Source: Nitrosopumilaceae archaeon (lineage in GTDB: Archaea > Thermoproteota > Nitrososphaeria > Nitrososphaerales > Nitrosopumilaceae). Taken from it: DNA of 64,000 nucleotides. The position numbers and the translations under genes were made by a program. Positions 9,572 to 52,928 of this stretch are shown here, piece by piece. How positions within the stretch are numbered: the stretch's first letter is position 1; each line of letters opens with the position of its first letter. The notes beneath the pieces are model-generated. The model made no database searches, had not been told where the DNA came from, and saw nothing but the letters and a program-made list of their open reading frames with translations. Location: contig CBDBCR010000001.1 of assembly GCA_965203465.1 (NCBI GenBank), forward strand, positions 864,001 to 928,000, read 5' to 3'.

Positions 9572-10936
9572 TCACGGCAGGCGCTGCACCAGAAAGCCGT
9601 ACTCTTTGCAGCCGTCGTAGTGGCCGCGTATCTCGGGCTGCCACCCGCGGCCCGCGTCGAGCATGTCCAGCGAGCGCCTCAGCTCCGGGATGGAGCCGTA
9701 GCACCGGCCGTTGCGGCGCACCAGGCCCTCGAGGAACTCCTCCTGGGGCAGCGAGTCGCTCTTTTTGCAGTTGCAGTCCCTGCAGGACAGCACCAGGTTC
9801 CAGGGGTCGTCTTCGAACATGTAAGACCACGGTATCAGATGATCCACGTCTGTGCGGCCCTCCTCCAGCCTGCTCCGGCAGTAAAAGCAGTGGCGCGTGT
9901 GGTCCAGGTACAGGCGCCTGTACGCGGCCAGGCTGCCCCTGGCCGCGTCGTACCTTTCCAGCTTTGCTATCAGCATGGGCATCGAGTTTATCCTTTCCAG
10001 GAATTTTGCCCACTCTGCGAGCACCGCCGACGAGAGCACGTTGTAGTTGTCCCTGAAAAAGGAGAACGCCTCGGGCTTGAGCCAGATCTTCTGCTCGTCG
10101 TCGTCGTACCCGTAGAACATGTCGGTGCGCACCGCCCCGGAGCGGTGCCTGAGGTTCTGGAACCGGGGCACCACCAGCGACGTCTTGCTCCTTGCGTGGC
10201 CAAAGACCGTCTTTAGTATCTCGGACTCTGCCCTCCGCACGTCCGCCCTGTCCAGCTTTGCAAAGTCGCCGGGCGCGCTGCCGCCGAAGACCCGGCGTAT
10301 CGCGAGGATGGCCTTGGGGTCGCTTTCGGTCCTGAAGTCCTGCTTTATGCGGAACTTGCACTCTTGGTGCCAATAGTACCGCAGGAACCTCGAGGCGAGG
10401 TACCTGTAGGGTATCTCCAGCGCGCCCGCGGAGTCGGGGGAGGCGCGCGCGTTCTCCCGGCAGTGATCCAGGATGGCGCGCGCCAGCGCGAACTTGTACG
10501 TGTTGGCCTTGCCGCCCCTGCGCAGTATGGCCATGAACGCGTCGTCCATGTCCGGAAGGTCCGGGGCCGCGCCGGGATCGGAGACGTCGGCCCAGCCGGG
10601 GGGCAGCTCTTTTGCCAGCCGGAACACGCCGCTGCCTTTTTTCCAGTCTGCCAGCGCGCCTTTGCCGCGGAGCTTTGCAAGCTCTTGGTCGACTGCGTTG
10701 TAAAAGTCGCTCGACTTTCTGGCCCCGCCCCACAGGCTCGGGTGCAGGTGGAGCCGCTCTGCGATCGGCTCCAGGAACTCGCTGCGGGCGTGCCAGACCG
10801 GCTCGTCGCGCAGCGCGCCCTGCCCCCGCGCCGCGGCCCCGCCGATCTCTGATATCGTCCTGCCGCCGCCCCCGAACACGTCGGCCATGGCGGCCCGCAG
10901 GTGGTCCCTGCGGATGGCGCCCTCGTAGTGAGCCAC
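9572..10936 (-). CDS. HNH endonuclease with N-terminal Mrr_N/wHTH-like region (type IV restriction-like)
   Basis: CFYC...DVDHLIPW...WNLVLSCRDCNCKK; NTYKFALARAIL motif. Confidence 0.85.
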   Translation of the reverse strand: MAHYEGAIRRDHLRAAMADVFGGGGRTISEIGGAAARGQGALRDEPVWHARSEFLEPIAERLHLHPSLWGGARKSSDFYNAVDQELAKLRGKGALADWKKGSGVFRLAKELPPGWADVSDPGAAPDLPDMDDAFMAILRRGGKANTYKFALARAILDHCRENARASPDSAGALEIPYRYLASRFLRYYWHQECKFRIKQDFRTESDPKAILAIRRVFGGSAPGDFAKLDRADVRRAESEILKTVFGHARSKTSLVVPRFQNLRHRSGAVRTDMFYGYDDDEQKIWLKPEAFSFFRDNYNVLSSAVLAEWAKFLERINSMPMLIAKLERYDAARGSLAAYRRLYLDHTRHCFYCRSRLEEGRTDVDHLIPWSYMFEDDPWNLVLSCRDCNCKKSDSLPQEEFLEGLVRRNGRCYGSIPELRRSLDMLDAGRGWQPEIRGHYDGCKEYGFLVQRLP

Positions 10937-13082: not shown

Positions 13083-13202
13083 TACTGCGCCCCGAACGGC
13101 GGAAACGGGTATAAAAGCGCCGCTTCGCCAAAGGCCGGAGCCGCCTGACCCGCGCGCCGGGCCCGGCGCATAGGATATTAACGGCGCGCCGGGGGCGCCG
13201 GC

Positions 13203-14774
13203 GTGAAAAAGCGCACAAAGGGGATACTCGCCTTTGCGTTCCTCGGTGGCATCATGGTCACCTCCGGGGTCACCATCGCCATACCGGGCATCGTGCCCGA
13301 GGACGAGAGCATGAGGATAACCGAGACGGGCACGCCTGCGGACAACTTTCCGGACGTGCAGCGCCCGCAGTTCTGCGGCGAGGGCGTGCCGGGCCGGACC
13401 CCCTACGTGACCGAGTACGGGGTGCCCACGCCGTGCACGCTGCCGCTGGCCATCACGTCGGATCCGTCAGGCAAGCTGTGGTTCGTGCAGACCAACACGG
13501 GCATGGTGGCAAGCTTTGATCCGCTCACCGAGCAGTTCGAAGAGTTCGAGAACCCGACGTGGCCGGCGCGGGCGCGCTCGATGATGTGGGGCGCCGACTA
13601 TTCGGCCGACAACTCGATCTGGTACTCGGACGAGGTCAACGACGCGGTGTGGCGCTTTTCCATAGACGACGGGCAGTACCGGCGGGTGGACTTTCCGGCG
13701 GCCGAGCGCCAGGGGGCCTCGATGCCCGACCCGCTGCCGCAGCGCGTCATGGCCGACGGCTCGCAGATAATAGTCAACGACCTTTTCGGCAACAAGATAA
13801 CCCTGCTCGACGCGAGCCTGTCCGGCGACGATCACGTGGACGTGCCCTCGCCGCTGCCGTCCGGATTCACCGGCGGGTTCGCCAAGGGGGCCGGCTCGCA
13901 GCTGTGGTACACGTCGTGGAACCCCGGCGCCGGCGGCCTGCTGGTCAGCCTGGACATGGACCAGTACCGGCGGGCGGTGGCCTCGGGGGAGGATCCGTCC
14001 GGGAGCATGCGCACGTTCGAGTTCCCCGCGTCCGTGCAGACTGTCAACGGCATCGTGGAATCGGCCGGCCGGGTGTGGATGGCCGACACGTCCACGTCCA
14101 ACTTTTACTCGTTCGAGCCGGCCGGCGAATCGTTCACCCAGTACACGCTGGCGCGCCCCGCCGAGGCCTCGTACGGCAACCAGACCGGCATAGTCGCCTC
14201 GCCGCTGGCAAGGCCCTACTGGGCCGACGTCCACCGCGACGGCCGCATAATATTCAACGAGCAGACGGCCAACCGGATATCGCTCTTCGACCCTTCCGAC
14301 GAGTCGCTCACCGGCTACGACATACCCTCGCGCAACCCAGTCTGGGCCGACTGCGGGGACTTGCCCGACTGCGGCCTGGCGCAGGCGTTCGACTTTGAGC
14401 CGGTCGGGGACAAGATATGGTACACGGGGTGGGTCACCAACACCATAGGGGCCGTCGATACGTCCGTCGAGCCGCCAGTCTCGGTCTCCGTAGAGCCTCG
14501 CACCGTCGTGTACGGGATAGACGAGGCCGTCGTGATGACAGTCTCTGCCTCCGAGCAGGTAAGCGCGGCCGTCGAGGCCAACGCGAGCACCTCGTCGCTG
14601 GCCGCCCAGATACCCGGCGAGTTCGGCGCGTTCGAGCTGGAGGCGGGCGGCCGGGAGGCCATACCCATAGGGGTGTTCGCGCCCGACCCCGAGCCGGGGA
14701 CCTACAAGATGCTCGTCGGCGTGAGCACCGACGGCCTAGTGGTCGGCCAGTACGTCACGGCAGTAGTCCCATGA
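13203..14774 (+). CDS. Membrane-anchored beta-propeller, virginiamycin B lyase-like
   Basis: N-terminal TM helix; repeated D..G.IW(F/Y) blades; C-terminal Ig-like region. Confidence 0.85.
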   Translation: MKKRTKGILAFAFLGGIMVTSGVTIAIPGIVPEDESMRITETGTPADNFPDVQRPQFCGEGVPGRTPYVTEYGVPTPCTLPLAITSDPSGKLWFVQTNTGMVASFDPLTEQFEEFENPTWPARARSMMWGADYSADNSIWYSDEVNDAVWRFSIDDGQYRRVDFPAAERQGASMPDPLPQRVMADGSQIIVNDLFGNKITLLDASLSGDDHVDVPSPLPSGFTGGFAKGAGSQLWYTSWNPGAGGLLVSLDMDQYRRAVASGEDPSGSMRTFEFPASVQTVNGIVESAGRVWMADTSTSNFYSFEPAGESFTQYTLARPAEASYGNQTGIVASPLARPYWADVHRDGRIIFNEQTANRISLFDPSDESLTGYDIPSRNPVWADCGDLPDCGLAQAFDFEPVGDKIWYTGWVTNTIGAVDTSVEPPVSVSVEPRTVVYGIDEAVVMTVSASEQVSAAVEANASTSSLAAQIPGEFGAFELEAGGREAIPIGVFAPDPEPGTYKMLVGVSTDGLVVGQYVTAVVP

Positions 14775-15919
14775 TCGGCGTGCCGCCGGCGGACCGGGCG
14801 GTCGGCATGCTCTGCTACAGCACGCAGAACCCGGGCTGCGGCGGCGCGCTGCGCTCGGCGCCGGGCGACTTTGCGGTCCAGGAGGTGCTGCAGCCGGGCG
14901 CGCTCGACGGGGTGGGCCCGTCTGGCCCGTACCCCCTCTACGCGCTGTACAAGGCCGGCACGGACACCAACGGGGCCCTGCGGCAGGTGCGCAAAAAGAC
15001 GGGGCTGCGCCTGCTGGCCATGGGCCTCAAGGATTCGGACGCGTACACCCGGCAGTACCTGTACTCGGTCTCGCGCGCGCGCGGGCCCCCGCGAGCCTCG
15101 GGCCGCCGGTGGCGCCTGCGCAGGCTGGGCTTCACGCAGAGGCCCCTGTCCAAGCGGCACATGTCGGGCAACAGGTTCGTAGTGCGCGTCGAGGGGGCCG
15201 GCAAGATGCCCGACAAGATGCCCGACCCCGGGCCGGTCGCAAACTTTTACGGGTACCAGCGCTTCGGCCTGCCCTCGCCGGTCACGCACCTGGTAGGCAG
15301 GGCCCTGGTGCGCGGGGACCTGGACGGGGCTGTGCGCGCCCTGCTGGGCGCCGACGCGTCGGACCCCGAAATGGCGCTGCGGGAGCTGCCGCCCGGCGCC
15401 GGGCCCGAAAGGGCGGTCCTTTGCGCGCTCGCGCGCGGCTCGGATCCCGTCGGGGCGCTGCGGCAGCTGCCCGTCTCGCTGCGCCGCCTGTACGTCAACG
15501 CCTACCAGTCGTACCTGTTCAACCTGTCGCTCAGCGCGGCCCTCGAGGCGGGCGAGCGGCTCGGCCCGTCCGAGGGCGACGTGTGCTACGGGCCCGGCGG
15601 GGACCTCGGGAGGTACTCGGGGCAGAAGCACCAGCGCCTCGCGATCCCGGTGGCCGGCCACTCTTACTACGCAAAGACGCGCTTCCACCGGTACGTCTCG
15701 GAGGCTGCCTCCTCGGAGGGGGCCAGAATGCCCGACTTTAGGGTGCGCGCGCTGCCCGAATCGGGCGCCGAGGGGGGCTTCCGGCAGGCGCTCATCTCGG
15801 TGCGCGGGTTCGGCGCGGGGGGGCAGTGGGCCTGGTTCGAGCTCTCGCGCGGCTCTTACGCCACGGTGCTGCTGCGCGAGCTGATCAAGCCCCGCGATCC
15901 GGCCCTTGCCGGTTTCTGA
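14771..15919 (+). CDS. truD: tRNA pseudouridine(13) synthase
   Basis: DFAVQE, GLKD, GNRF, NFYGYQRFG, AYQSYLFN, GSYATVLLRE. Confidence 0.95.
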   Translation: MIGVPPADRAVGMLCYSTQNPGCGGALRSAPGDFAVQEVLQPGALDGVGPSGPYPLYALYKAGTDTNGALRQVRKKTGLRLLAMGLKDSDAYTRQYLYSVSRARGPPRASGRRWRLRRLGFTQRPLSKRHMSGNRFVVRVEGAGKMPDKMPDPGPVANFYGYQRFGLPSPVTHLVGRALVRGDLDGAVRALLGADASDPEMALRELPPGAGPERAVLCALARGSDPVGALRQLPVSLRRLYVNAYQSYLFNLSLSAALEAGERLGPSEGDVCYGPGGDLGRYSGQKHQRLAIPVAGHSYYAKTRFHRYVSEAASSEGARMPDFRVRALPESGAEGGFRQALISVRGFGAGGQWAWFELSRGSYATVLLRELIKPRDPALAGF

Positions 15920-16118
15920 GCAGGAACGCCAGGGCGGCGAGGCCGGCGCCGGCCGAGGCTATCTGGAGGCCGTACGCCTCCCAGTCGGGGCTTGCGTACA
16001 TGAAGGAGTATTCGGGGCCCACCAGCGCGAGGCCCTGCAGGTGGAAGACTATGCCGGCAGCGCACAGGGCAGCGCCGCCTGCCACGGCCGCCCGGGCCGG
16101 GCTAAAAGATTTGACCAT
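15885..16118 (-). CDS. Small membrane protein
   Basis: Two hydrophobic helices around FHLQG...VGPEYSFMY. Confidence 0.7.
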   Translation of the reverse strand: MVKSFSPARAAVAGGAALCAAGIVFHLQGLALVGPEYSFMYASPDWEAYGLQIASAGAGLAALAFLLRNRQGPDRGA

Positions 16119-16162
16119 TGCTCAAAGGGGGTGCGCGCGGCCCCTTTAATTACGATAGCGCG

Positions 16163-16855
16163 ATGGGGGCCGTGGAGGACTGGGACGGGACCGGAAAGCG
16201 CCGCTCGGGGCACGCCGACATTGTGCTGTTCGTGATCTCGGCTGCGGCCGCCGTGCTCGCATTCCTGGTCTTCGCGCCCCAGATAGAGAGGATAAACTCC
16301 GAATCGCCGGTGCTGCTGACGGTGCTGTTCGCGCCGGCCATGGGGATAGGGCTGCTGTACGGCATGAGGATGACGGAGCTGGCGGTGCGCCCGTCCGAGA
16401 CGCGCGGGGCCCTCAGGCGGTCGGCCACCAAGGTGTTCCTGTTCTTTTTCGTGATCGGCGGCCTGTTCAGCTCGGTCAACTTTGCGCTCAACGGGGGCAG
16501 CATAATGCCCGAGCTGGACATTTTGGAGGACGGGCTGCTGGCCTGGGCCGAGGCGTTCGTGTACGCCAACGGCGGGGCCACGTTCCTGATACTGTCCAGC
16601 ATAGCCTTGATGGCCTCTGCCACCAAGAGGATCGTGGGGATGAGCTCCGGGCTGCTCAACCGGGCCGTCACGTGCGTGAGCACGTTCATCTTTTTTTCGA
16701 TGCTGGCCCTCGGCTTCACCGGCTCGGACCCGACGCACTCTGCGGTGTTCCTGTACACGTTCTACCACGCCGGCATAATAGGCGGGGCGTTCATCGCGAT
16801 GAACCGCCTCACGCGCAACCTCAACACCATGGAAGACTACGCCAACGGGTACTAG
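16163..16855 (+). CDS. Multi-pass membrane protein
   Basis: About 6 TM segments; TTTAATTA upstream. Confidence 0.8.
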   Translation: MGAVEDWDGTGKRRSGHADIVLFVISAAAAVLAFLVFAPQIERINSESPVLLTVLFAPAMGIGLLYGMRMTELAVRPSETRGALRRSATKVFLFFFVIGGLFSSVNFALNGGSIMPELDILEDGLLAWAEAFVYANGGATFLILSSIALMASATKRIVGMSSGLLNRAVTCVSTFIFFSMLALGFTGSDPTHSAVFLYTFYHAGIIGGAFIAMNRLTRNLNTMEDYANGY

Positions 16856-17092: not shown

Positions 17093-18091
17093 TTACAGGA
17101 TGCGGCCGTCCAGCGAGGCCGAGCGGAAGAGTTTCTCGGCCTCGAGCAGGCCCGAGTACCACCCGACCGTGCGCGTCTGCGGCAGGTCCGCCGTGCGGCC
17201 CGACCGGAGGGCCGAGAGGATCTCGCGGACCCCGTCGGCCACCGACAGGCGGGCCGAAAAGCCGGCCTCTTTGGCCCTTGCAAAGCTGGCCCTGTAGGAG
17301 CGCGCGTCGGCGCCGCCGTACCACCTTCTGCGCGGCGCCACGCCGGCGGCCCGGGCCACCTCCGAGGAGAGCTGCCGGATCTGCCAGTTCTGCGAGCCCA
17401 CGTTGAACGTGCCCGACGCGTCCGAGCCCACAAAGTGCGCGTAGGCGCGCGCCGCGTCGCGCACGTGGATTAGGGGCCTCCACTGGCGCCCGTCGCGCAT
17501 GACCTGCATGCTTCCGTCCCTCCAGAGCCCGAGCGCCATGGCGTTGACGGCCAGGTCGAAGCGCATGCGCGGCGAGAGCCCGAAGACGGTGGCGAAGCGC
17601 AGCGAGACGGTCCTGAACCCGGCGGCGTCCAGCTTTTCCGCGGCCGCCTCGGCTGCCAAGTTGGCCCGGGCGTACGCGGTCAGGGGGCGGGTTCGGGAAC
17701 CCTCGTCGAGCACCCCGCCGGCCGCGCCGTACACGGAGCAGCTCGACGCGAGCACGTACCTGCCGACGCCCATCTGGCGGGCCAGCCTGGCCGTGCGCGC
17801 CCGCCCGCGGTGGTTTATCTGGTCGGTCTTTGCGGGGTCGAGCTGGCCGGCCGGATCGTTGGATATGGACGCCATGTCCACCACCGCCTGCACGCCGCGC
17901 AGCAGGCGCTTGTCGAAACTGCGCGAGTCGGCCCTGATCAGCCTCAAGCGCGGGTTCCTGGAGACCGGTGCGAGGGATCCGGCGCCGAAAAAGAACCTGT
18001 CCAGCACCCTGACCTCGTGCCCCGCGCGCAGCAGGTGACGCACCAGCACCGAGCCGACGTAGCCGGCCCCGCCGGTCACCAGTATCCTCAC
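17093..18091 (-). CDS. NAD-dependent epimerase/dehydratase (extended SDR)
   Basis: ILVTGGAGYVG, ASSCSVYG, RMRFDLAVN; the YxxxK motif reads YARAN. Confidence 0.92.
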   Translation of the reverse strand: MRILVTGGAGYVGSVLVRHLLRAGHEVRVLDRFFFGAGSLAPVSRNPRLRLIRADSRSFDKRLLRGVQAVVDMASISNDPAGQLDPAKTDQINHRGRARTARLARQMGVGRYVLASSCSVYGAAGGVLDEGSRTRPLTAYARANLAAEAAAEKLDAAGFRTVSLRFATVFGLSPRMRFDLAVNAMALGLWRDGSMQVMRDGRQWRPLIHVRDAARAYAHFVGSDASGTFNVGSQNWQIRQLSSEVARAAGVAPRRRWYGGADARSYRASFARAKEAGFSARLSVADGVREILSALRSGRTADLPQTRTVGWYSGLLEAEKLFRSASLDGRIL

Positions 18092-18195
18092 GGCAGGCCT
18101 CGGCCGCCTCGCGTTTTGAATGTTGGCCCGCGCCAGTTCGGTCGCCCGAAAGGCGGGGTGCCCGGGGCGGCCGCCCGTCCTGCCACAGTAGGTAT

Positions 18196-18552
18196 ATGTG
18201 GAAGTCTTTGGCGCGCCTTGCATTGGCAGACTTTGATTACGGATCGGTGCTTACGAGTTCGGCGATACTGGCTGGGCTCATCGGAATGGGGTTCGTTGCA
18301 AGCTTTAGGATAATGGACGTAGGCAAGTACATCGAAATGAAGGGACGGGTAAAGGGCCTGTACGCGCTGGGGTTTGTTGCAACGTGCTGTCCGTTCGCGG
18401 TCATTCTGACCGTCGTCTCTGACCATTACTCGCCCCTGGCCCACTTTTGGCTGTTTGTCTCAATGCTGGGCCTCATCGGCGCGTTCATGTACACCATGTG
18501 GTCTATAAGAGACGCCGAGCACAAGCCCGACAGGTGGACAAGCAAAGTCTAG
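18196..18552 (+). CDS. Small membrane protein (about 3 TM)
   Basis: Hydrophobic 118 aa ORF, lower GC. Confidence 0.65.
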   Translation: MWKSLARLALADFDYGSVLTSSAILAGLIGMGFVASFRIMDVGKYIEMKGRVKGLYALGFVATCCPFAVILTVVSDHYSPLAHFWLFVSMLGLIGAFMYTMWSIRDAEHKPDRWTSKV

Positions 18553-18827
18553 CAAGAGGGCCGACTGCCAGTATTCAGATTTCCCTTGTCTGCAACCACG
18601 AGGCGCATCTGCTCAAGTTCCTGCTTCACTTCCGTAAAGTTCCTTTCAAGCTCGTAAAACAGATCCACTCCGAACTTGTACTCTTTTGTGTACAGGATCT
18701 CGTCCAAGGCGCGGCGCGCTACGCCGAGGTGTCTTTTCCCGCCGTCGTTCTCCGATCTGACATCCCTCATCCGCCTGATGGTGTGTTCGATTCTTATTTT
18801 GTCGACGACTGGCACGGTCTTGCTCAT
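18549..18827 (-). CDS. Hypothetical protein
   Basis: 92 aa; TTATTTAT ~25 nt upstream; divergent from the Ubl operon. Confidence 0.6.
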   Translation of the reverse strand: MSKTVPVVDKIRIEHTIRRMRDVRSENDGGKRHLGVARRALDEILYTKEYKFGVDLFYELERNFTEVKQELEQMRLVVADKGNLNTGSRPSC

Positions 18828-18945
18828 ACGTGCCTGATCTGGGAAGCCTCATAAATAAGTATATGGCGATCAGACCGGGTTCTGGCCGGGGCACGGCGTG
18901 CCTGCCTCGAAAGGAATTATAGCCCGGTGCGCGTGATCGGGAAAC

Positions 18946-19242
18946 ATGGAGGACACGGGCGTTGCGGCCGGTTCTGGCACGGCGGAAAGCGGCCCTGCGG
19001 TGCCGTCTGCCGGAATAGACGTCAAGATTGGCGGCAGAAAAATCCACATCGGCGGGGCGGATCTGGGGCGCGTCACCGTCGATCTTTTGCTGAAGGAGGG
19101 CGGCTACGGGGAAGGCGAGATCAACGACTACGATCTTTTTGTGGCCGGCCAAGACGAGCCGCTGGACAGGGACGCCCCGGTCCGGATCACGGAAGGCATA
19201 CAGCTTCGCCCGATAAGGCGATCGAACCCGTACGGCCGATGA
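18946..19242 (+). CDS. Ubiquitin-like (multiubiquitin/beta-grasp) protein, BubA-like
   Basis: Beta-grasp pattern IDVKIGG...VTVDLLLKEGG...YDLF...VRITEGIQL; ends NPYG-R; first gene of the E2/E1 operon. Confidence 0.75.
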   Translation: MEDTGVAAGSGTAESGPAVPSAGIDVKIGGRKIHIGGADLGRVTVDLLLKEGGYGEGEINDYDLFVAGQDEPLDRDAPVRITEGIQLRPIRRSNPYGR

Positions 19243-19628
19243 ACCCCGACAAACTGCGCTCCGACGCGTCCCGCTTCGCAGGTGCCCGCGGCCTTGCGCT
19301 CGGGTTCGAGGAAAAAGACGGCCTAGTGTATGTGACGTTCGACCGCTACCCGATACCGTCGCCCGCGTACGACCGGGATCGAACGCGGCTGATGATATTC
19401 AACACGGTCGAATACCCAAAGACCGCGTTCGACATGTTCTTCACGGATCCGAGCGTGAGGCTTGCCAGCGGCCGGATGCCGGAAGGCACGTCGATCGCAA
19501 ACCACCTCGGCAGGGAATGGCTGCAGTGGAGCATCCACCCGTACAACGACGGCAGGTGGGATCCAGGCAGGGACGACTTGGACGGATTCATGGACTACGT
19601 AGAGCGCAGGTTCAAGAACGGTGATTGA
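19239..19628 (+). CDS. Prokaryotic E2 family E protein, BubB-like
   Basis: YPIP, YPKTAFDMFF, WLQWSIH, WDPGRDDL; contains no Cys; ATGA overlap with the Ubl gene. Confidence 0.85.
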   Translation: MNPDKLRSDASRFAGARGLALGFEEKDGLVYVTFDRYPIPSPAYDRDRTRLMIFNTVEYPKTAFDMFFTDPSVRLASGRMPEGTSIANHLGREWLQWSIHPYNDGRWDPGRDDLDGFMDYVERRFKNGD

Positions 19629-20995
19629 CGGTGGAAAGCAAGTCTTCAGATCCGGGCGTGACGGCGGATAGGCGCCAAAAGAGCGCCGGCTCGGGGCCGC
19701 GATGGACTGTGTCGTTCCCGGCGGGACTGTACCGCAGGCTCACGAGTTTTCTAGAGAGCGCCGAACCTCTCGAAAACGGGTGCTATCTGACTGCCGACTG
19801 GCACGCGGCGGGGCGGGTGCGGCGCATGCTTGTCAGGTCGGCAGTACTGCCGAACGAGCGCTCGTGGAACGCCCAAGGGAAGGGGAGCCTGAACCCGTCG
19901 TCGCAGTACCTCAACCGCGCGGTAGGCGAGGCTGAACGGGCAGGATCGTCCCTGCTGTTCGTCCACACCCACCCGTCTTCCGACCACCCTCCCGCCTTCA
20001 GCAGCATAGACGAGGCGACCAACGAAGTGTTTTTCCGAGACATGTCGTCCCTGCTGCACGGCCGCCCGGTAGGCAGCGCGGTCTTGAGCAGGGCCGGCAT
20101 GCACGCGGTCGTGCACCACGAAGGGAGGGCGCATCCGGCGCACCGGATAGAGGCGGTGGGCAGCACGCTGGAGCGCGCCGATCGAGCGCGGGACGGCGCC
20201 GCCAGACATTCGCCCGCGCACGTAAGGCAGGCGGCGATGCTGGGTCCGGTACACGAGCGCATCTGCGGCCTTGACGTGTGCATCGTGGGGGCCGGAGGTG
20301 TAGGATCCTGCGTCGCGGCGCAGGTCGCGAGGCTGGGTGCGGGCCGCATCAGGCTGGTCGATCCAGATGTGCTTGAGGAAAGCAACGTCTCGCGGGTGTA
20401 CGGATCGAGGCCCGAGCAGGTCGGAAGTCACAAGGCGGATGTGGTGGCCGAATACATGCGGTCGTTTTCGAGCTCGGAGGTGCGTGCCGTGCGCGGCGAC
20501 ATCTGCGACGATGAGCACCTTGCATGCGCCCTTGAGGCGGATGTCGTCGTGTGCTGCACGGACAACATGAGGAGCCGGGACAAGCTGAACGAGGCGTCTC
20601 TTCGCTACTACCGGCCCCTGATCGACGTGGGCTGCAACGTGGTGACGGAGAACAGGCTAGAGTCCACCGCGTACGCGCAGTCGGTCACGCCGGAGACTGC
20701 ATGCCTGTGGTGCACGGGGCAGATGGACGGCAAGAGGCTTGGAGACGAGCTTCTTACCGGGGAGCAGAGGCTGGCAAAGGCCAGGCTCGGCTACTACGAG
20801 CCGCACCAGCCTTCGACCGTCGCGCTCACCACTTGGGCCGCCTGCCTGGGCGTGGACAAGCTCTTTTCGCTGCTGGGTCTCTACGGCAGAGGGCGCAGTT
20901 CCGTCTCGTACGTGGACATTACGGGGGAATTCTGCCAGCACCGCACCCCGCCCGTCAAAAAAGGGTGCGTCTGCGCAGAGTTCAGGTTCGACTAG
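19625..20995 (+). CDS. JAB/JAMM peptidase fused to ThiF/E1 enzyme, BubCD-like
   Basis: JAMM: ENG...HTHP...FSSID; E1: GAGGVGS, DPDVLEESNVSR, CTDN, CLWC and C-terminal CVC. Confidence 0.9.
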   Translation: MTVESKSSDPGVTADRRQKSAGSGPRWTVSFPAGLYRRLTSFLESAEPLENGCYLTADWHAAGRVRRMLVRSAVLPNERSWNAQGKGSLNPSSQYLNRAVGEAERAGSSLLFVHTHPSSDHPPAFSSIDEATNEVFFRDMSSLLHGRPVGSAVLSRAGMHAVVHHEGRAHPAHRIEAVGSTLERADRARDGAARHSPAHVRQAAMLGPVHERICGLDVCIVGAGGVGSCVAAQVARLGAGRIRLVDPDVLEESNVSRVYGSRPEQVGSHKADVVAEYMRSFSSSEVRAVRGDICDDEHLACALEADVVVCCTDNMRSRDKLNEASLRYYRPLIDVGCNVVTENRLESTAYAQSVTPETACLWCTGQMDGKRLGDELLTGEQRLAKARLGYYEPHQPSTVALTTWAACLGVDKLFSLLGLYGRGRSSVSYVDITGEFCQHRTPPVKKGCVCAEFRFD

Positions 20996-21414
20996 CGTCT
21001 GCATGGCATCTGGATCAGCGAGTACTTTGCGTCCGCTAGGATCTCCTACCCGGGCCAACCCGGGACGGGCCGGATCTTCCCCTCGATCTCGGGCACGAGA
21101 TTGCGCGCTGCGGGATGCGGGCGGCTGCGGCAAAAGGCCAGAGCCGGGCCTGCAAACACAAATTACGCGCCGCCGGGCCCGCGCGATTCCCCCGGCGCGC
21201 CAGTCTTGCCCGGCCGGCAAAAACGGGCACGCGCAAAAATAATCCCCGGCACGGTTACCAGCAAACTGGGAGTTGAGTCGCTTCAGGCACATTTTTCCCG
21301 CAAGGAGCATATGCGCGGGCAGGGACCGACCTAGTGCGCGCGCCCGTCTTGAGCGGATTGGCCTCAGCGGCCCCTGTCCGCAAATACAAATATGCCCGCC
21401 GGCCGGGCGCGTCC

Positions 21415-22359
21415 GTGGCGTCCGGACCTGCGGTACTCGTGACCGGCGGGGCGGGGTACCTGGGCTCGGTGCTGGTGCCGTCGCTCCTTGCCGGGGGCTG
21501 CCGCGTCCGCGTGCTGGACAACTTCAGGTACAGGCAGGCCAGCCTGCTAGACTGCTGCCACGATCCGAACCTGGAGATAGTGCGGGGCGACGTGCGCGAC
21601 TCCGAGGCGCTGTCCTCTTCGCTCGAAGGCGTGCGGTACGTGGTGCATCTGGCCGCGCTGGTCGGCGCGCCCGTCTGCGATTCCGATCCGAGCGCGGCGG
21701 CCTCGACGAACCTGGAGGCCACGCGCCTGCTGCTCTCGCTGCGCTCGGAGGATCAGCGCGTGCTGTTCCCGTGCACCAACAGCGGCTACGGGGTGGGGGA
21801 GAAGAGCATCGAATGCACCGAAGAGACGCCCCTGCGCCCCATATCGCTGTACGGCCGCACGAAGGTGGAGGCCGAAAAGGCCGTGCTCGAGGCGGGCTCC
21901 TCGATAAGCCTCCGGCTGGCCACCGTCTTCGGGGTCTCGCCGCGCATGCGCCTGGATCTGCTGGTCAACGACTTCGTGCACCGGGCCGTGCGCGACGGCT
22001 TCGTGGTGGTCTTCGAGGGGCACTTCAAGCGCAACTACATCCACGTGCGGGACGTGGCGCGCGCGTTCATCCACTGCATGGACAACTTCGAGGCCATGGC
22101 CGGGCGCCCCTACAACGTGGGGCTGAGCGACGCAAACCTCTCGAAGCTGGAGCTGTGCGCGGCCATACGGGAGCGCGTGCCCGGATTCGTGTTTTTGGAA
22201 TCGCAGATAGGCGAGGATCCCGACAAGCGCGACTACATCGTCTCCAACAGGAGGATCGAGGAATCCGGCTTCGCGCCCCAATTCTCGATACAGGACGGCA
22301 TAGACGAGCTTGCCAAGGCCTACAGGGTGCTGCCCCGCCCGGCGTTCGGCAACGCCTGA
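21415..22359 (+). CDS. NAD-dependent epimerase/dehydratase
   Basis: VLVTGGAGYLG, HLAALVG, YGRTK, RMRLDLLVN. Confidence 0.92.
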   Translation: MASGPAVLVTGGAGYLGSVLVPSLLAGGCRVRVLDNFRYRQASLLDCCHDPNLEIVRGDVRDSEALSSSLEGVRYVVHLAALVGAPVCDSDPSAAASTNLEATRLLLSLRSEDQRVLFPCTNSGYGVGEKSIECTEETPLRPISLYGRTKVEAEKAVLEAGSSISLRLATVFGVSPRMRLDLLVNDFVHRAVRDGFVVVFEGHFKRNYIHVRDVARAFIHCMDNFEAMAGRPYNVGLSDANLSKLELCAAIRERVPGFVFLESQIGEDPDKRDYIVSNRRIEESGFAPQFSIQDGIDELAKAYRVLPRPAFGNA

Positions 22360-22394: not shown

Positions 22395-23334
22395 GTGCCG
22401 AAAATAGTGCTCACCGGGGCCACGGGGTTCCTCGGCTCGCACACCATGCCGGTTCTGCGCGCAAGGTACGGCCCCGAGAACGTCCGGGGGGTATCGTCGA
22501 AGGACTACGACCTGACCGCGCCCGGCGATGTGCGCAGGATGTTCGACGAGCTGGAGCCGGACGTGCTGGTGCACTTTGCCGCGTACGTGGGCGGCATTGG
22601 GGCCAACTCGGCCCTTCCGGCGGACTTTTTCTACGTCAACAACCTGATCACGAGCCTGGCCTTCGAGTACGCGGCGCGCAAAAAGATCCGCAAGATGGTA
22701 TACCCGATAGGGGGGTGCTGCTACCCGCACGACGCGCCCTCGCCCATATCCGAATCGCAGATGTGGAACGGCTACCCGCAGGCCGAAAGCGCGGGGTACG
22801 CCATGGCCAAGAAGGTGGGCGTGGTGGCTAGCAGGTCGTACCGCGAGCAGCACGGCCTCGAGTCGGCGATCATCGTGCCCGGCAACATGTACGGCGAGCA
22901 CGACAACTACAGCCTGTCCGATTCCCCACGTCATACCGGCGACGATCCGCAAGATGTACGAGGCAAAGCGCGACGGGCTGCCGCGCGTGTCCATGTGGGG
23001 CTCGGGCGCCGCGCAGAGGGACTTCGTGTACGCCGGCGACGTGGCGGCCACCGTGCCGTTCTTCATCGACTCTTACAGCTCGGACGGGTACGTCAACGTA
23101 TCGACGGGCACCACCACGTCGATACGCGAGCTGGCAGAGACGGTCCGCGAGCTGGTCGGCTACGAGGGGGAGATAGCCTGGGACACCTCGAAGCCGGACG
23201 GGCAGATGGTCAAGATATTCGACACCGCGCGGATGAGGGAGGCGGGCATAGGCTGCCCCACCCCGCTGCGCGAGGGGCTGCGCCGCACCGTCGAGTGGTT
23301 CTCGGCAAACTACGGCTCCGGGGTCCGGCTGTAG
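22395..23334 (+). pseudogene. fcl: GDP-L-fucose synthase family, frameshifted
   Basis: AAYVGGIGAN, YAMAK, NMYGEHDNY; one extra C in CCCC at 22924-22927 breaks DSHVIPA; continues WGSG..RDF..KPDG in ORF 22954..23334. Confidence 0.88.
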
Positions 23335-23340
23335 GGCCGG

Positions 23341-23433
23341 CCGAGCCCGCGAAGGACGGAACCGGATTCGCCCGTCTTGGCCGATCCGCGGCCGGAAATC
23401 ATCCGCCCGCCGGCGGGACTTTCGGGTCGACTG
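23341..23433 (+). repeat. Dispersed element copy 1
   Basis: TTGGCCGAT...GGAAATCATCCGCCCGCCGGCGGGACTTTCGGGTCGAC. Confidence 0.85.
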
Positions 23434-23476
23434 TGAACGACGTTTGAGATTTATGCCCCCGTTCGACGGGCAGGCC

Positions 23477-25129: not shown

Positions 25130-26220
25130 TGTTGTCCGAAAAAGAGTATCGCCCCTTGAGTAGGCGTGGAGGGGCAGGTAAGAGTGCGGAATGCACGGCG
25201 CGGGCCGCGTGGAGTGGAAATGGAGGTGGGTGGGTCGCCGGGCGCCCGGGCCGACAGGAATACATTGGGGGGCTCCGGGCGGGGGCACTTGAAACTGAGC
25301 CAGTCGCAGGTGCAATGGATAGTCCGCGAAAAGGCGAGGGGGGAAATGACCAACTCGGAGATAGGCAGGCTCGTGGGGGTCTCTGCAGTGTGGGTCAGAA
25401 AGCTGTATGCCCGGTACCGGCACCAAAAGCCCAGCAGGATCTCTTATCCTGCGCCTTTGGGCAGGCCGGCCGGCAGCCTGCCCGGGCGCAGGGAGCACTC
25501 GGCCGTGCTGACTTCGAGGTACGCCGCGGAGAACGGGGCGGTGCGCCTGGTAGATTACATAGAAGAGAGCACCGGATTACATATACCGCACAACGCCATA
25601 CACAGGATCTTGCGGGACGAGGAACTGGCCGATCGGCAGCACAGGAAGAGCGGGCAGCGCAAGTGGGTCAGGTACGAGCGCAAGTACTCCAACTCCATGT
25701 GGCACACCGACTACAAGCAGCTGGACGACGGTATGTGGTTCATCGCGTACCAGGACGACGCGTCGCGCTTCATAGTGGGGTACGGCGTGTTCAAAGAGGC
25801 GACCGGAAAACACGCCGTCGAAGTCCTAAAAGAGGCCATTTCCAGGCACGGAAAGCCGGCTTCGGTGCTCACCGACCACGGATCCCAGTTTTACGCCAAC
25901 GAAAAAGAGTCGGCCGCCCGGGGCGAGGCGATGTTCGAAAAGGAACTGGCCGCGCTCGGCGTGAGGCACATACTCGCTAGGGTCAACCACCCGCAGACCA
26001 ACGGCAAGCTGGAAAGGTTCCACGGCGAGCTGCAGCGCAGGCTGCCCAACTTCATCGGCGCCTCTGCCGACAGGACCACCCGCGCGACGGGGTCCGGGGG
26101 CCACGTGGGCAGCCCGTTCTATTCGGCCGGGCCCACCGACCCGGTGGCCCGGTTCGTGCGCTGGTACAACCACGACCGCGCGCACATGTCGCTTAACAAG
26201 GGCGAGACGCCGGCGCGGGC
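25130..26220 (+). mobile_element. IS481/IS1202-like element, 3'-truncated; transposase from ~25289
   Basis: TGT left end; rve core WHTD, DDASR, TDHGSQF, PQTNGKLERF; homology to the 38 kb copy stops at ~26220; no right TIR. Confidence 0.85.
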
Positions 26221-26310
26221 GTGTTTACGGTCACCGCGTTCTTGTGGAAGAGCATGGACAACCCTGTCCCCCTCTGCGGGCCGGTCTCGAAAGAGGTCAA
26301 CGTGGTATGA
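26221..26310 (+). pseudogene. 3' relic of a gene with a thaumarchaeal S-layer-like C-terminal domain
   Basis: VFTVTAFLWKSMDNPVPLCGPVSKEVNVV* resembles the TATAFVWESVDNPTALSPPVS tail (from memory). Confidence 0.45.
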
Positions 26311-26423
26311 CGTGCGAGCGGGCGCGGACTTGGTCGCGTCGGCCGGTGCCGGCTGGGCTGGGATTTTGCACGTGTGCGAAATTCCCGCTCCAACTCTACA
26401 AGCGCCCTACACAATTTACAGCC

Positions 26424-27380
26424 ATGCCCAATACGCCGGACGCGCGCAAGGCGGGCGGATGCAGATCCGCGCAAAACACAGAAACTGCATCCGCGATCCC
26501 TCTACCGTCACATCTTTTTAATGGATTCGAGAGAAAGATGCAGGCCAAGCAACTCGGTTTCATAAGCGACCACATCCGCTCGTACGAACTCTTCGAGAGG
26601 ACGATGGGCTTCCAGTATTTCCTCAACGGCAAGATCATCGACGCGTCGAGCCAGATCCGGGAGCCCAGAGACACCTCTGACCAGGCCATGACCGACGACG
26701 CCATTCTCCAGATCTTGGAGCAGAACCTGCTGTATCTGTTTTCCGCCCTCCGCCCCCTGGAACAAGAGTCCATACACGCCCACCGCGCACTGGTGCGCCC
26801 GGTGCTCGAATCCGTGCCCAAGTGCTTCTTCCTCATGAGGCATCCGGAAAGCACCAGGATGTTTCTGTTGGCAGAGAAACGCGACGCGTGGGAGGCGGTC
26901 GGCAAGCACGAAAGCAGGCCCAAGTCCGAGAAATTTTTAGAATCTGGAGCATCTCGGGAAGTTCCAAGGACGCAAGAAATCACGAACGAGGAATTTGCCG
27001 AGTTCAGGAACCGCAAGAATCGCGAACTGAGATCCAAAATCTACGGCACGAAGACGGTAAAATTGCAGGATCGGCTCTATTCGGTGCTGAGCACCAGCTC
27101 CCACTCGAACATACTCAGACACCACCCTTTGGAAGTCCGCCGGGCGGCCAAAGAGCTGTCCTTTAGGATTCTTGCCGAATTGTCTTTTTTCAACCTGTTC
27201 CTGATGGTCAATTCTCAGCACAGGGCATTGGGAGGCTTGGGCCTCATGGAAACGGCAAAACTGTTCACTTTGGATGCGCAGAAAAGACTGCAACCCCATT
27301 CTGAACTCACGTATTTGTATCCAGACAACAAAGAATACGTGAAGAATCTGATTCTAAAACCCCCGCGGCGGAAAAACTGA
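26424..27380 (+). CDS. DUF5677-like (HEPN-related) protein, paralog 1
   Basis: ALVRPVLE...YSVLSTSSH pattern; clear similarity to the 29894 and 44689-47273 genes. Confidence 0.75.
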   Translation: MPNTPDARKAGGCRSAQNTETASAIPLPSHLFNGFERKMQAKQLGFISDHIRSYELFERTMGFQYFLNGKIIDASSQIREPRDTSDQAMTDDAILQILEQNLLYLFSALRPLEQESIHAHRALVRPVLESVPKCFFLMRHPESTRMFLLAEKRDAWEAVGKHESRPKSEKFLESGASREVPRTQEITNEEFAEFRNRKNRELRSKIYGTKTVKLQDRLYSVLSTSSHSNILRHHPLEVRRAAKELSFRILAELSFFNLFLMVNSQHRALGGLGLMETAKLFTLDAQKRLQPHSELTYLYPDNKEYVKNLILKPPRRKN

Positions 27381-32825: not shown

Positions 32826-34048
32826 GCGCCGGCCCCGGAAGCGTTCTTTTTTATGTGTATGCCGGCCCGGCGCTGGAACTTAGGCGGACCTAATTTCGAT
32901 ATAAGAGACGGCCCGGCGCTGGAAAAGGCAAGGCAGGCACGGGCGCCGAGATCCGCGATGGGCTGCGGGGCATCCGGGTTGCCAGGTTGCGAATGCGCGG
33001 GCAGGTCGCCTGAACGGGCCCGCCGCTTCAAGAGTTATAAGGCACTAAGGTACCCTACGGTACGAAATGAGAACCAACAGGCGCCACCATACGGTCTCCC
33101 GCTTCTACCTGAAGGTAACTGTTCACGTAGTGCCTGAATTTTCACCCCTTGGTGAATTTTTTTGACAGCAGCGATCTAAATACTAGTACGTTTTACGCCA
33201 GCCGTTGGATTGCAGGGAAGCGACCCGCAAGTGCGCCGAGTGGAAGCACAAGTTCAAGGGGGCAAGGACCGAGCTGCAGCAGGTCAAGATGCGGCTGAAC
33301 GTCGAGACGGACAGGGCCGACCGGGCCGAGCGCGACAAGCTGCGCTCGGATGCCGAGAATGCGCTCCTCAGGCAGGCGCTCGAAGACGAGAGGGAGGCGA
33401 GGCTCAAGTCCGACGACAGGTCGGCGCGGCTCGCCCGCAGGGTGAAGGAGCTGGAAAAGATCAACAAGATCCACGACAACGCGCACACCCCGTCGTCCAA
33501 GATGACGTACACCCAGAAAATGATCGCCGCCAAAAAGAACAGGGACAGGCCCAAGTCCGGCAGGAAGCAGGGCGCGCAAAAGGGACACCCGGGCAAGACC
33601 AGCAAGCCCGAGCCCACCGAGTTCGAGGAGCACACGATGAGCGAGTGCCCCAACTGCGGGTCCGACAGCATAAAGAACACCGGGCAAAAGACCCGCAACG
33701 TCACGGAGTCTCCTCCCCCCGCGAAGCCGGTCACCACGCGCCACACGATAAACGTCTACGAATGCTGCCGGTGCGGCCAAAAGGGCATGGAGCCCGACGC
33801 CGGCCTGCCGAGCGCCGGCGAGCTGGGCCGCAACGCGTGCGGGCGCGTCGTGAGCAACTTCGACGACCGCCTGACGCACAGGATGAACGCCCGCAGGATG
33901 GGCCGGGACGGCCTGGCGGTCTCCGTAGGCACGGTAAGCAACGTGCTGGCCAGGGCGGGCCGCAACATGAAGCCGTTCGTCGAGGCCATGATCCTGGCCA
34001 TGCAGCGCGCCGGCGTGCTGCACATCGACGAGACGTCGTTCAAACTCA

Positions 34049-35474
34049 ATCCATGTGCCCTACCTATAAGACTTGCACTCTAGCCGACGCCTAGCAGTCT
34101 ATAGCATACGCTCAGTGACGTTCCTGGCCTCCACGGCCCGTAGATGAAGTTCGGACAGTCATCCATTCGAGGCGATGCTTCCATCCCTCAGGATCATTCT
34201 TCATCCCTTTGTCAGGATATTATGTAAATACAGGGCCGGGGCCTAGGGTTTCCCCTAGCCGCCACTGAGTTTCCCACAACTTAATTCCTGACCGTAATTC
34301 GGCACGAACGCCCGGTTTTCCCTGAGCATCCAGTAAATCGTCTTTAATATTTTCGCGGCGGCGGCCACCGCCGCCTTCGCCATCCCCCTCTTCTCCGCAA
34401 GGCGCCTGTAGAATATCGAAATGTCGGAGTCTGGCGCGTAGCGCACGTGCGCGTGCAGGCACTCGGTCAGCACCCACCTCAGTATGGAGCTGCCGCGGTG
34501 GGTTATCGGCCCGTAATGGACCGCGTCTCCGGACGATCTTACGGACGGGACCATCCCCGCGTAAGCGCACAGCTTTGCCGCGCGCACGAACCTGCCGATG
34601 TCGTCGATCTCCGAGTCGATCACGAGCGCGGAATAGTCGCCTATGCCTGGGATCGTCTTTATGATCTGCGCGGCCGGGCTCTGCTTCACCGCGTCGCGTA
34701 TCCTTCCGTTCATCCTCGCAATCTGGAGGTTGAGGGAGTCTATCAATTCCAAGAACGCGTTTATCCTGTAGTTTTCGAGCGCCCGGACCTGCCTGATCCA
34801 GCCTTCGCTGAACGGGGTTCCCTTGGGCCGCACGTGCGACTGGAGCAGTATGGCGTGTATGGAGTTTTTCATGGCGGTGCGCGTGTGCGTCAGTTTCTGG
34901 CGGTGGCGCACCAAGTCCCTGTTCTTCATGTTGGTCTCCGACGCCACGTGGCATGTGGCCAGGTACCCGCCCCTCCCCATGTCGGCCAGGGTGAACGCGT
35001 CCACCTTGTCGGTCTTTTTCTTGGACTCTGCGATCACCCTGTTCAGGTACGGGTTCGTCAGTTTCACGTCGAGCCCGAGATTGTCGCGTATGTAGAAAAA
35101 CGTCGCCTTCCACACCGACGACGATTCGAGGAACACCTGCGCGTCCTTCGGGATGTCCTTCATCGCCTTCCCGATGGCTTCGGGGGTGTTCGGTATGCTT
35201 CCGTTGCCTATCTCGCTCCCTCCCTCCGTCATGCAGCATATCTGTATGGTCTTTTTGTGTACGTCGAGCCCGACGAATTTTACGTCCATCATGCGGTCGG
35301 AAAAATTTTCCCTAATTTTTTTGTTTGCGTTTGCCTTGGCGGGCCGCCTTCGGCCGGCGGCCTTCGCGCCAGAGGGCGGCGACGGCCTCCCAGCCCTGCG
35401 GGCCGGCCCTACCCGGACCGGATGCCCCTTGTCGCAGGAATCATCTGAATCCCTCCCTTGCCGCACATAGGATT
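34049..35474 (-). mobile_element. IS110-family element
   Basis: Removing it restores IS66 codons CTC-AAC-GGC; no TSD; terminal near-IR AATCC(T)ATGTGC; ~180 and ~205 nt non-coding ends. Confidence 0.92.
34255..35292 (-). CDS. IS110 recombinase (DEDD)
   Basis: GLDVHK, FLESS, KTDKVDA, IPGIG, YAGMVPSVRSSG. Confidence 0.95.
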   Translation of the reverse strand: MMDVKFVGLDVHKKTIQICCMTEGGSEIGNGSIPNTPEAIGKAMKDIPKDAQVFLESSSVWKATFFYIRDNLGLDVKLTNPYLNRVIAESKKKTDKVDAFTLADMGRGGYLATCHVASETNMKNRDLVRHRQKLTHTRTAMKNSIHAILLQSHVRPKGTPFSEGWIRQVRALENYRINAFLELIDSLNLQIARMNGRIRDAVKQSPAAQIIKTIPGIGDYSALVIDSEIDDIGRFVRAAKLCAYAGMVPSVRSSGDAVHYGPITHRGSSILRWVLTECLHAHVRYAPDSDISIFYRRLAEKRGMAKAAVAAAAKILKTIYWMLRENRAFVPNYGQELSCGKLSGG

Positions 35475-52765: not shown

Positions 52766-52928
52766 CCGGGGCCCCCAGGTTTCGGAGCCAAGAGCCGGTC
52801 TAGGGCATGCGTTCCAAAGCGGCCGGCGGGCGCCGCGCTTGGGACGGACCGGGCCCCGGGCGCGCATTCCGGGATGCCGGTGCCCGGAAGCGGAACGGTA
52901 AAATACGGGGATGCGACAGGGCTGTACC

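Follow-up and report, generated by a model that had tools for sequence, protein, structure and literature searches.

A probable Type-I-like Bub ubiquitin-like conjugation module, split and without BubE, in an ammonia-oxidiser-lineage archaeon of the Nitrosopumilaceae

Results and Discussion

A 64,000-nucleotide stretch of the genome of a Nitrosopumilaceae archaeon (hereafter the window; C1:864001-928000 of genome G000) contains three overlapping genes that encode a ubiquitin-like protein (Ubl), an E2 protein free of cysteine and a fusion of a JAB peptidase domain with an E1 domain. We consider it likely that these genes constitute a Type-I-like Bub (formerly "6E") Ubl conjugation module of an ammonia oxidiser, with an accessory and strain-variable role in defence or stress. 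Its components and its predicted chemistry agree with the described Bub family; the archaeal host range, the absence of BubE, the stand-alone Ubl with a mature end, the TIR and CARF winged helix-turn-helix (CARF-wHTH) partners of sister operons and two small genes confined to one subclade are unreported in the literature searched. The locus is possibly the first archaeal Bub system to be reported, with cysteine-free chemistry in globally important ammonia oxidisers. The host genome measures 2.26 Mb in four contigs and is 96.9% complete; its small-subunit ribosomal RNA scores 1441.8 bits with the archaeal model and 1088.5 bits with the bacterial one, and the contig of the window also carries an archaeal amoA (PF12942, E 1.9e-115). 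Both results confirm the ammonia-oxidiser-lineage archaeon that had been supposed in the original prediction, which was made from the DNA alone.

Gene layout of the operon

The Ubl gene (BubA-like, 98 amino acids, C-terminus RRSNPYGR) occupies positions 18946-19242 of the window, the E2 gene (BubB-like, Prok-E2_E family, 129 amino acids) positions 19239-19628 and the JAB-E1 gene (BubCD-like, 456 amino acids) positions 19625-20995, all on the plus strand. All three open reading frames are intact and overlap by four bases at each junction. The E2 gene starts with an ATG inside CGATGA, which overlaps the Ubl stop as ATGA, and the JAB-E1 gene with a TTG inside GATTGA, which overlaps the E2 stop as TTGA; an additional in-frame GTG is found in the latter gene at 19631. 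The three coupled genes of the original prediction were therefore reproduced. The Ubl and E2 reading frames differ, which makes them two genes and no fusion, and the same two-gene split is present in 10/10 aligned relatives, including an Acidimicrobiaceae bacterium. Furthermore, a 3507-base contig from a public run spans 17561-21067 with 0 differences to the window, so that the split between Ubl and E2 is no assembly artefact of this record. A second public contig, spanning 18310-21562, carries 64 substitutions and no gaps.

The E2 and JAB-E1 proteins

According to the main text of Ye et al., Type I Bub (6E.1) comprises the Ubl-E2 fusion BubAB, the JAB-E1 protein BubCD and BubE, a DUF6527 serine protease, and the JAB domain cuts the BubAB pre-protein after a conserved Gly (bioRxiv 10.1101/2024.11.21.623953). 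The catalytic residues given there for Citrobacter are Tyr370 and Arg227 in the E1, E28/H91/H93/D104 in the JAMM motif and Ser333/His335 with Asp299 in the E2, and mutating either the E2 Ser-x-His/Asp triad or the E1 Tyr abolished conjugation (bioRxiv 10.1101/2024.11.21.623953).

The window E2 matched Pfam Prok-E2_E (PF14462) with an E-value of 8.4e-18, and the lack of cysteine together with the WSIH motif (within LQWSIHPY), both described earlier for this protein, were found again. A search with the single sequence reached BubB at a weak E 0.5, aligning DMFF/QWSIH with DMFY/RWSRH, and a profile of 11 sequences returned Citrobacter BubB as its sole PDB hits, over the full length and with an E-value of 5e-15. 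Residues D65, S98 and H100 are invariant in 11/11 sequences, which have no conserved cysteine column, and they align with the published catalytic D299/S333/H335. As the E2 has no cysteine, a thioester on this protein is impossible. We also surveyed the E2 family in a library of 1.84 billion proteins, considering the best 150 of 868 representatives: both the [WFY]SxH and the DMF motifs were present in 130 of these 150, and 104 were standalone proteins of at most 160 amino acids. In the 46 longer proteins the E2 is C-terminal, and the 12 that were examined in full have a Ubl-like N-terminal part.

The third protein combines a JAB/JAMM peptidase domain (about residues 38-160; 19736-20104, plus strand), with E50, H114, H116, S126 and D129, and an E1 adenylation domain (about residues 195-456; 20207-20995, plus strand), with GxGxxGS at 222-228, R257, G389-Y390 and the cysteine pairs C360/C363 and C448/C450. 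Its ThiF match has an E-value of 3.8e-30. The best PDB match of the single sequence was Citrobacter BubCD (E 2.3e-24), and a 30-sequence family profile aligned its positions 4-405 with residues 9-407 of the BubCD chain at E 1.1e-66, the entire N-terminal domain falling on the JAB domain of BubCD; the next-best matches of the profile were eukaryotic E1s at ~1e-28. Residues E50/H114/H116/D129/R257/Y390 align to BubCD E28/H91/H93/D104/R227/Y370 (the chain numbering is offset by 2, chain Y372 being native Y370). E50, H114, D129, R257, G389 and Y390 are invariant in 30/30 sequences, and at least 90% of them retain H116 and S126. The crossover loop is formed by G389-Y390-Y391, and there is no cysteine between C363 and C407. 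An intact JAMM motif (E50, H114-T-H116, S126-x-x-D129) fused to an E1 whose crossover loop carries GYY was thus recovered as originally described, and the best solved relatives of both enzymes, Citrobacter BubCD and BubB, agree with calling the operon Bub-like.

The conservation of the residues that are essential in Citrobacter, together with the cysteine-free E2, points to an oxyester route, and by homology to Citrobacter Bub we infer all of its chemical steps (Tyr390 to Ser98 oxyester to Lys). The JAB domain would bind the tail of the 98-residue Ubl and remove Arg98, exposing Gly97, which the E1 domain would adenylate. The Ubl would then be transferred to the crossover-loop Tyr390 as an oxyester and from there, again as an oxyester, onto E2 Ser98 with the aid of His100 and Asp65, and the E2 would finally hand it to lysines of target proteins. 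A complex of JAB-E1 and Ubl predicted with alignments for both proteins obtained an ipSAE of 0.81, a mark attained by 58/80 solved complexes and 2/110 mismatched pairs, versus 0.00 for the best control; at least 95% of contacts were common to the runs, with a partner pLDDT of at least 76. Since JAMM-ubiquitin complexes have already been solved, this score is to be read as likeness and not as binding. In the predicted complex, Ubl residues 88-98 are placed on the JAMM residues E50, H114, H116, S126 and D129, a modelled arrangement that fits cleavage after Gly97. With its one-domain Ubl, a cysteine-free E2 of 129 amino acids and one E1, the operon offers a compact system for work on oxyester-based Ubl transfer.

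The ubiquitin-like protein

Because the Ubl is unmatched in curated families, its fold was demonstrated by modelling instead. An AlphaFold2 (AF2) model built with 11 sequences has a pLDDT of 81.4, with core blocks at 86-92, and consists of disordered residues 1-22 followed by a beta-beta-alpha-beta...beta core, that is, a single beta-grasp domain. The best VIA match of the model was the multi-ubiquitin of E. coli ZDHYS365 (Z 8.4, root-mean-square deviation 2.0, 66 residues aligned), followed by another bacterial multi-ubiquitin (Z 8.2), ubiquitin (8.0) and ISG15. All 50 VIA rows are beta-grasp proteins, Z values near 8 being middling according to the note of the tool. Additionally, the top Foldseek rows were all ubiquitin-like (SUMO, NEDD8, ThiS, ISG15 and bacterial Ubl), and the best PDB match of the family profile was 9cd2 (E 0.015). 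A first reading frame without a beta-grasp fold had been named in the original prediction as its refutation; the AF2 model and the VIA score of 8.4 give it that fold.

The Ubl contains no cysteine and its G97 is invariant in 11/11 aligned sequences. The NPYG-R terminus was confirmed, and the terminal Arg98 is peculiar to the window copy: 8/10 aligned relatives finish exactly at Gly, a second copy in the same genome continues with one Ala and a Thermoplasmata relative with three residues, SCK. The predicted complex with JAB-E1 makes a requirement for clipping of Arg98 plausible.

Relation to published systems

The window operon shares with Type I Bub of Citrobacter sp. RHBSTW-00271 a JAB-E1 protein of the same length (about 456 amino acids), the positions of the JAMM residues, the adenylation Arg and the crossover-loop Tyr, a cysteine-free E2 with Asp and Ser-x-His, and a beta-grasp Ubl with a C-terminal Gly. 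Several features differ. In Citrobacter, Ubl and E2 form one pre-protein and the Ubl has three beta-grasp domains, whereas here they are encoded by separate overlapping genes and the Ubl has one domain; BubE is part of the Citrobacter operon and is missing from that of the window; the window E1 contains a CxxC...CxC motif, of which there is none in the aligned BubCD stretch; and the window host is archaeal, with other accessory genes. Two statements of the original prediction must consequently be corrected: the operon is not "complete", having no DUF6527/BubE, and bacterial Bub operons do not have this architecture, since published Type I operons combine a Ubl-E2 fusion with BubE and the genes described here are split and BubE-less.

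The same genome also harbours a complete operon of the other type. Type II Bub (6E.2) is composed of BubA, the E2-E1 protein BubBD and BubE according to the main text of the same preprint (bioRxiv 10.1101/2024.11.21.623953). Such an operon lies at C1:730729-732494 (L018 8727-10495) on the minus strand, ~152 kb from the window operon, and consists of a Multi_ubiq Ubl of 81 amino acids (E 6.8e-12), a DUF6791-ThiF E2-E1 protein of 400 amino acids and a DUF6527 BubE of 133 amino acids (E 2.2e-22). The sole PF20137 match in the genome (C1:730855-731031, E 1.6e-22) falls inside it. Type II Bub shares with the window operon the Ubl superfamily and the Ser/Tyr logic, and differs from it by its E2-E1 fusion, its BubE and its lack of JAB; the window E1 is ~29% identical to the Type II BubBD of this genome over ~137 residues. 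The neighbours of the Type II operon are a gene for a GMT-wHTH-domain protein and a large open reading frame that is methylase-like by eye.

The lack of BubE extends to the relatives of the window operon. A tblastn search with the BubE of this genome found none beside 19 archaeal Type-I-like operons (E ≤ 1e-4), and a PF20137 match was present in 0 of the 12 other E2-bearing genomes of our class sample. Given that BubE is absent and that the JAMM motif is kept also in relatives whose Ubl has a terminal Gly from the start, we propose from the sequences that the JAB domain probably doubles as the deconjugating peptidase of this BubE-less branch, which raises the question of whether BubE is dispensable when a JAB domain is available.

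Other systems resemble the operon less closely. Bil (BilA-D) also divides its Ubl, E2, JAB and E1 functions and acts in defence, and differs by its cysteine thioesters, its large IAD-AAD-CYS E1 and a JAB that is a separate protein. Type II cyclic oligonucleotide-based antiphage signalling systems (CBASS) share, through Cap2/Cap3, the E1/E2/JAB logic in an immune operon; Cap2, in which E2 is fused to E1 and the catalytic residues are cysteines, conjugates the cyclase itself, not a Ubl. The haloarchaeal SAMP/UbaA/HvJAMM1 system is likewise archaeal; its modifier has a beta-grasp fold and a C-terminal Gly, and it comprises an adenylating enzyme of the E1 kind and a JAMM protease. That system works without an E2 and also acts as a sulfur carrier. 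The dedicated E2 of the window and the score of its E1 with the NCBIfam SAMP-activating E1 model (NF047750; 47.3 bits versus a cut-off of 450) bear out the earlier distinction from SAMPylation. Caldiarchaeum and Asgard archaea possess eukaryote-like systems that share an archaeal Ubl, E1, E2 and Rpn11-like JAB, and in which the E2s are canonical UBC proteins relying on a catalytic Cys and RING E3s take part; the distinction from them that had been drawn earlier is upheld by the window E2 without cysteine. To our knowledge, E2-dependent Ubl conjugation in archaea is known only from these Caldiarchaeum and Asgard eukaryote-like systems.

The literature searches returned no characterised archaeal example, in line with the original prediction, which knew of none, supplementary tables being outside their scope. 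In the 2010 survey by Makarova & Koonin, no archaeal E2 is reported. The main texts of both Bub preprints contain no archaeal Bub system; Table S1, with 544 operons, was outside this search and may list archaeal, split or BubE-less operons. The main text of a 2026 Nucleic Acids Research survey of 7747 archaeal genomes is without ubiquitin, Bub, Bil or TIR, and DUF6527 appeared in the literature searched only in works of the Corbett group.

It is extremely improbable that the operon serves sulfur transfer or cofactor synthesis (ThiS/MoaD with ThiF/MoeB) or works like SAMP, independently of an E2. The matches of the E1 to the NCBIfam ThiF/MoeB/UbaA models (E 1e-12 to 1e-19), all far under their cut-offs, and its CxxC...CxC motif would favour such a reading. 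Against it stand a dedicated E2 with a conserved S/H/D site, a fused JAB peptidase, BubCD and BubB as closest relatives, an annotated neighbourhood in which rhodanese, thiamine and molybdopterin genes were not seen and an E2 carried by only 13/401 class genomes.

Paralogs, phylogeny and distribution

Two further Type-I-like copies were found in the genome. Copy 2 (C1:378420-380418; locus L016 378420-381133) is intact, and its Ubl, E2 and E1 are 49, 55 and 63% identical to those of the window (copy 1) by tblastn. Copy 3 (C3:199938-201481; locus L017, to 201621), with an E1 39% identical and a Ubl ending in VPYG, is decayed: its E2 is frameshifted and has lost the catalytic D to G and H to S (GFGVFW, FSYSTY), and the JAMM Ser of its E1 is replaced by Gly. 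In a tree of 21 JAB-E1 sequences, whose bootstrap was not fully settled and in which G191 and two bacterial long branches are unreliable, copies 1 and 2 are sisters with support 97/95. They group with one copy of genome G344 and a Cenarchaeum-type genome (G235) in a clade supported at 100/100, which is enclosed in an archaeal clade of 13 (95/94) that also holds Nitrosopumilus, Nitrosotenuis and Thermoplasmata operons and copy 3.

Among 401 genomes of the class, G000 included, a Type-I-like E2 was present in 13, all of one family, the Nitrosopumilaceae: besides G000, it was carried by 12/223 other genomes of the family, by 0/177 genomes of 19 other families and by 0/3 congeners. One of the carriers, G132 (E 7.7e-8), is an unpublished genome, and without it the count is 12/400. 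DUF6527 was found in 12/401 genomes (11 besides G000), so each type occurs in about 5% of the 223 other family genomes (12 with a Type-I-like E2 and 11 with DUF6527), and both types occur together only in G000. The largest genomes of the family, G291 and G344 (3.7-3.9 Mb), contain four E2 matches each. Carriage of the operon by viruses is unsupported by scans of IMG/VR: with narrow patterns, the JAB-E1 profile gave 34 loci that all represent the generic ThiF stretch (about residues 195-376) at 24-46% identity, and of the 19 pattern matches scanned with the E2 profile, 0 were relatives.

Sister operons and the role of the module

The gene content beside related operons bears most directly on function. 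In 8/19 archaeal operons the E1 gene is directly followed by a TIR gene encoding ~270 amino acids; the C-terminal half of the protein is a TIR_2 domain that passes the cut-off (E 8.1e-07), preceded by an unassigned N-terminal domain. The hosts are low-GC Nitrosopumilaceae and a Thermoplasmata metagenome-assembled genome. The TIR-bearing loci are L005 (6339-8166), L007 (3065-3862), L010/L032, L034, L038, L039, L004 and L008, and a second TIR gene lies near L005 and L007. Additionally, 4/13 neighbourhoods contain a divergent gene for a CARF-like (HFX_2341_N/Csa3_N) and winged-helix protein immediately upstream of the Ubl gene (E 1e-29 to 5e-32; L005 3537-4286, minus strand; L032 7038-7790, minus strand; L033 8662-9396, plus strand; L037 8590-9354, plus strand), and two further neighbourhoods have other wHTH regulators at this position. 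In bacterial Bub operons the same position is taken by CapW or CapH/CapP, regulators that accompany 39% of these operons according to the main text of the preprint (bioRxiv 10.1101/2024.11.21.623953). The TIR and CARF-wHTH partners support an immune role in the relatives that carry the sister operons, and they raise the question of whether Ubl conjugation controls the TIR effector there. Furthermore, an AAA_15/AAA_21 ATPase gene lies downstream of copy 2 and a SocA_Panacea gene upstream of copy 3.

For the window copy itself, a defence role is suggested only indirectly, by the TIR, CARF-wHTH and AAA_15/21 genes beside its sister operons. Taken together, the patchy distribution, the multiple copies, the decaying copy, the TIR and CARF-wHTH partners, the nearby insertion sequences (IS) and a drop in metagenomic depth point to an accessory system of the defence type. 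The depth drop was seen in one sponge metagenome, where the contig with the operon (18310-21562) has a depth of 12 and the flanking contigs, 8-9% divergent, ~80-97; it may reflect strain-level presence and absence of the operon, a hint that is weak in view of the fact that depths add up across organisms. Joined contigs that could represent an empty site (X6, 17876>22337, depth 8; X4, 19143>22006, depth 2.3; X1, 17017>20486, a side of 23) were too weak to be accepted.

Several observations weigh against reading the operon as a Bub module of this type and role. BubE/DUF6527 was not found in the window operon, although the main text of the Bub paper states that bubE is present in all Bub operons (bioRxiv 10.1101/2024.11.21.623953). 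The window copy is accompanied by neither a TIR gene nor a CARF-wHTH gene nor any recognisable effector, and tblastn with the TIR gene found nothing at E ≤ 1 in the whole genome. Of the hidden Markov models proposed as a check in the original prediction, Prok-E2_E and ThiF matched, Prok-JAB stayed below the Pfam cut-off (E 0.013; 15.8 versus 25 bits) and Multi_ubiq gave no hit at E ≤ 1; indeed, the Ubl found no match at E ≤ 1 in Pfam, Multi_ubiq included, in NCBIfam or in PADLOC, and the Foldseek E-values of its model are weak, all being at least 0.011. No NCBIfam family reached its cut-off for Ubl, E2 or JAB-E1. No PADLOC model matched the E2, and in JAB-E1 PADLOC recognised the adenylation domain only, through Cap2-type "E1-E2" models (E 4.9e-16). 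The complex model put the Ubl at the JAB site rather than at the adenylation site. In addition, four invariant cysteines (360, 363, 448 and 450) lie near the crossover loop, C360/C363 just before it, and one of them may have a catalytic role. By analogy with MoeB/ThiF, these four residues look like a structural Zn site, which we take them to be. Finally, the G+C of the operon (0.645) equals that of contig C1 (0.648), so the composition gives no sign of recent transfer; only the GC3 is below that of the flanks (0.74-0.81 versus ~0.9), and this was not treated as a signal.

The strongest alternative, which we nevertheless consider unlikely, is that the same chemistry serves a role that is not antiviral, in regulation, stress response or symbiosis, for example in a sponge-associated host. 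The window copy without a defence-type effector, its flanks of sugar-nucleotide epimerases, the concentration of copies in the largest genomes of the family (G291 and G344) and the presence of the stretch mainly in sponge/marine metagenome runs (9 runs from 5 studies, one possibly the source) would all agree with this, and the Bub authors themselves allow "antiphage immunity or stress response" in the main text of their preprint (bioRxiv 10.1101/2024.11.21.623953). Among 14 public runs, no RNA run carries the stretch, which gives no evidence either way on expression. The sister operons with TIR and CARF-wHTH genes, the AAA_15/21 ATPase at copy 2, the patchy occurrence (13/401 genomes and 0/3 congeners) and the IS elements and KAP and Schlafen genes nearby argue instead for defence.

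It is still less probable, and in our view rather improbable, that the window copy is an orphaned and useless remnant, a conjugation core whose effector and deconjugase are gone. The missing fourth gene and BubE, the decaying third copy in the same genome and the depth of the segment, about 1/8 of that of its flanks in one metagenome, can be read in this sense. Against it, the three open reading frames are intact with overlapping starts and stops, all catalytic residues are retained, and copy 2 (63/55/49% identical for E1/E2/Ubl) retains the same five-gene set with the two small genes, as would be expected if purifying selection acted on the entire module.

Returning to the accessory Bub module that we favour, a more specific proposal can be made, tentatively and with more doubt than confidence. 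The operons of Nitrosopumilaceae, together with stray ones of Thermoplasmata, Bathyarchaeia and Heimdallarchaeota, might represent a distinct BubE-less Bub branch with cysteine-free conjugation of a stand-alone Ubl ending in Gly, in which the JAB domain would act as deconjugase (and here also as the maturase that clips Arg) and Ubl conjugation would control a TIR immune pathway under CARF-wHTH (Csa3-like) regulators. In the high-GC, sponge-associated subclade to which this window belongs, the TIR gene might be replaced by an effector or regulator pair consisting of a three-transmembrane and a four-helix protein.

Neighbouring genes and genomic context

This pair lies directly upstream of the operon. 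A gene for a membrane protein of 118 amino acids (memb118; 18196-18552, plus strand), with three transmembrane segments predicted by an eye count, is followed by a gene for a four-helix protein of 92 amino acids (hel92; 18549-18827, minus strand), which is divergent from the Ubl gene. The AF2 model of hel92 is a four-helix bundle with a pLDDT of 86.9. Neither protein belongs to a Pfam family, and the best scores of hel92 and memb118 in the protein atlas (0.79 and 0.87) are under the counting threshold of 0.9. The best Foldseek row of the hel92 model, the helical-repeat protein Get4 at E 0.86, was regarded as uninformative. Each of the two genes has exactly two copies in the genome, directly upstream of Bub-like copies 1 and 2, and at copy 2 the two stand in inverted orientation to the operon. 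At the Cenarchaeum-type operon (L035/L011), memb118 is ~1 kb upstream and hel92 ~7 kb off, and a hel92 fragment is present at L036; homologs were found beside none of the other 15 archaeal operons, which limits them to the high-GC clade. Both genes probably belong to the module as effector or regulator, and what they do beside the high-GC copies is a further question raised by this locus.

The 118-bp gap between the divergent 92-residue gene and the Ubl gene contains two AT-rich stretches (18850-18925), CATAAATAAGTATAT near 18850 and AATTATAG ~27 bp 5' of the Ubl ATG. Judged by eye, CATAAATAAGTATAT and AATTATAG resemble archaeal TATA elements that would serve leaderless transcripts.

On the left, synteny with two congeners covers 13175-16855 of the window and ends exactly at the end of a gene for a membrane protein of 245 amino acids; beyond 16855, both congeners jump to a block at C1:~554-560 kb of this genome. 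A right-hand boundary of a genomic island was sought and abandoned, as the congeners are too rearranged (their blocks map to C1, C2 and C3). An HNH endonuclease gene is located at 9572-10936. Downstream, the window has a variable-looking stretch at 24000-56200, within which lie rve integrase genes (25166-26521 and 37938-38999), an IS66 transposase fragment (33205-34083), and genes for a Schlafen-AlbA_2/HEAT protein of 1371 amino acids (39334-43449) and a KAP-family NTPase of 1069 amino acids (52911-56120). NAD-dependent epimerase genes flank the window operon, and in the 339-bp gap between 20995 and the epimerase gene no open reading frame was selected by codon-position G+C. The epimerase gene at 22395-23447 reads as frameshifted near 22924; the contigs of all four public runs compared, one run being otherwise identical to the window, are without one base at 22924/22925, which makes an assembly error or a private variant the probable origin of the frameshift.

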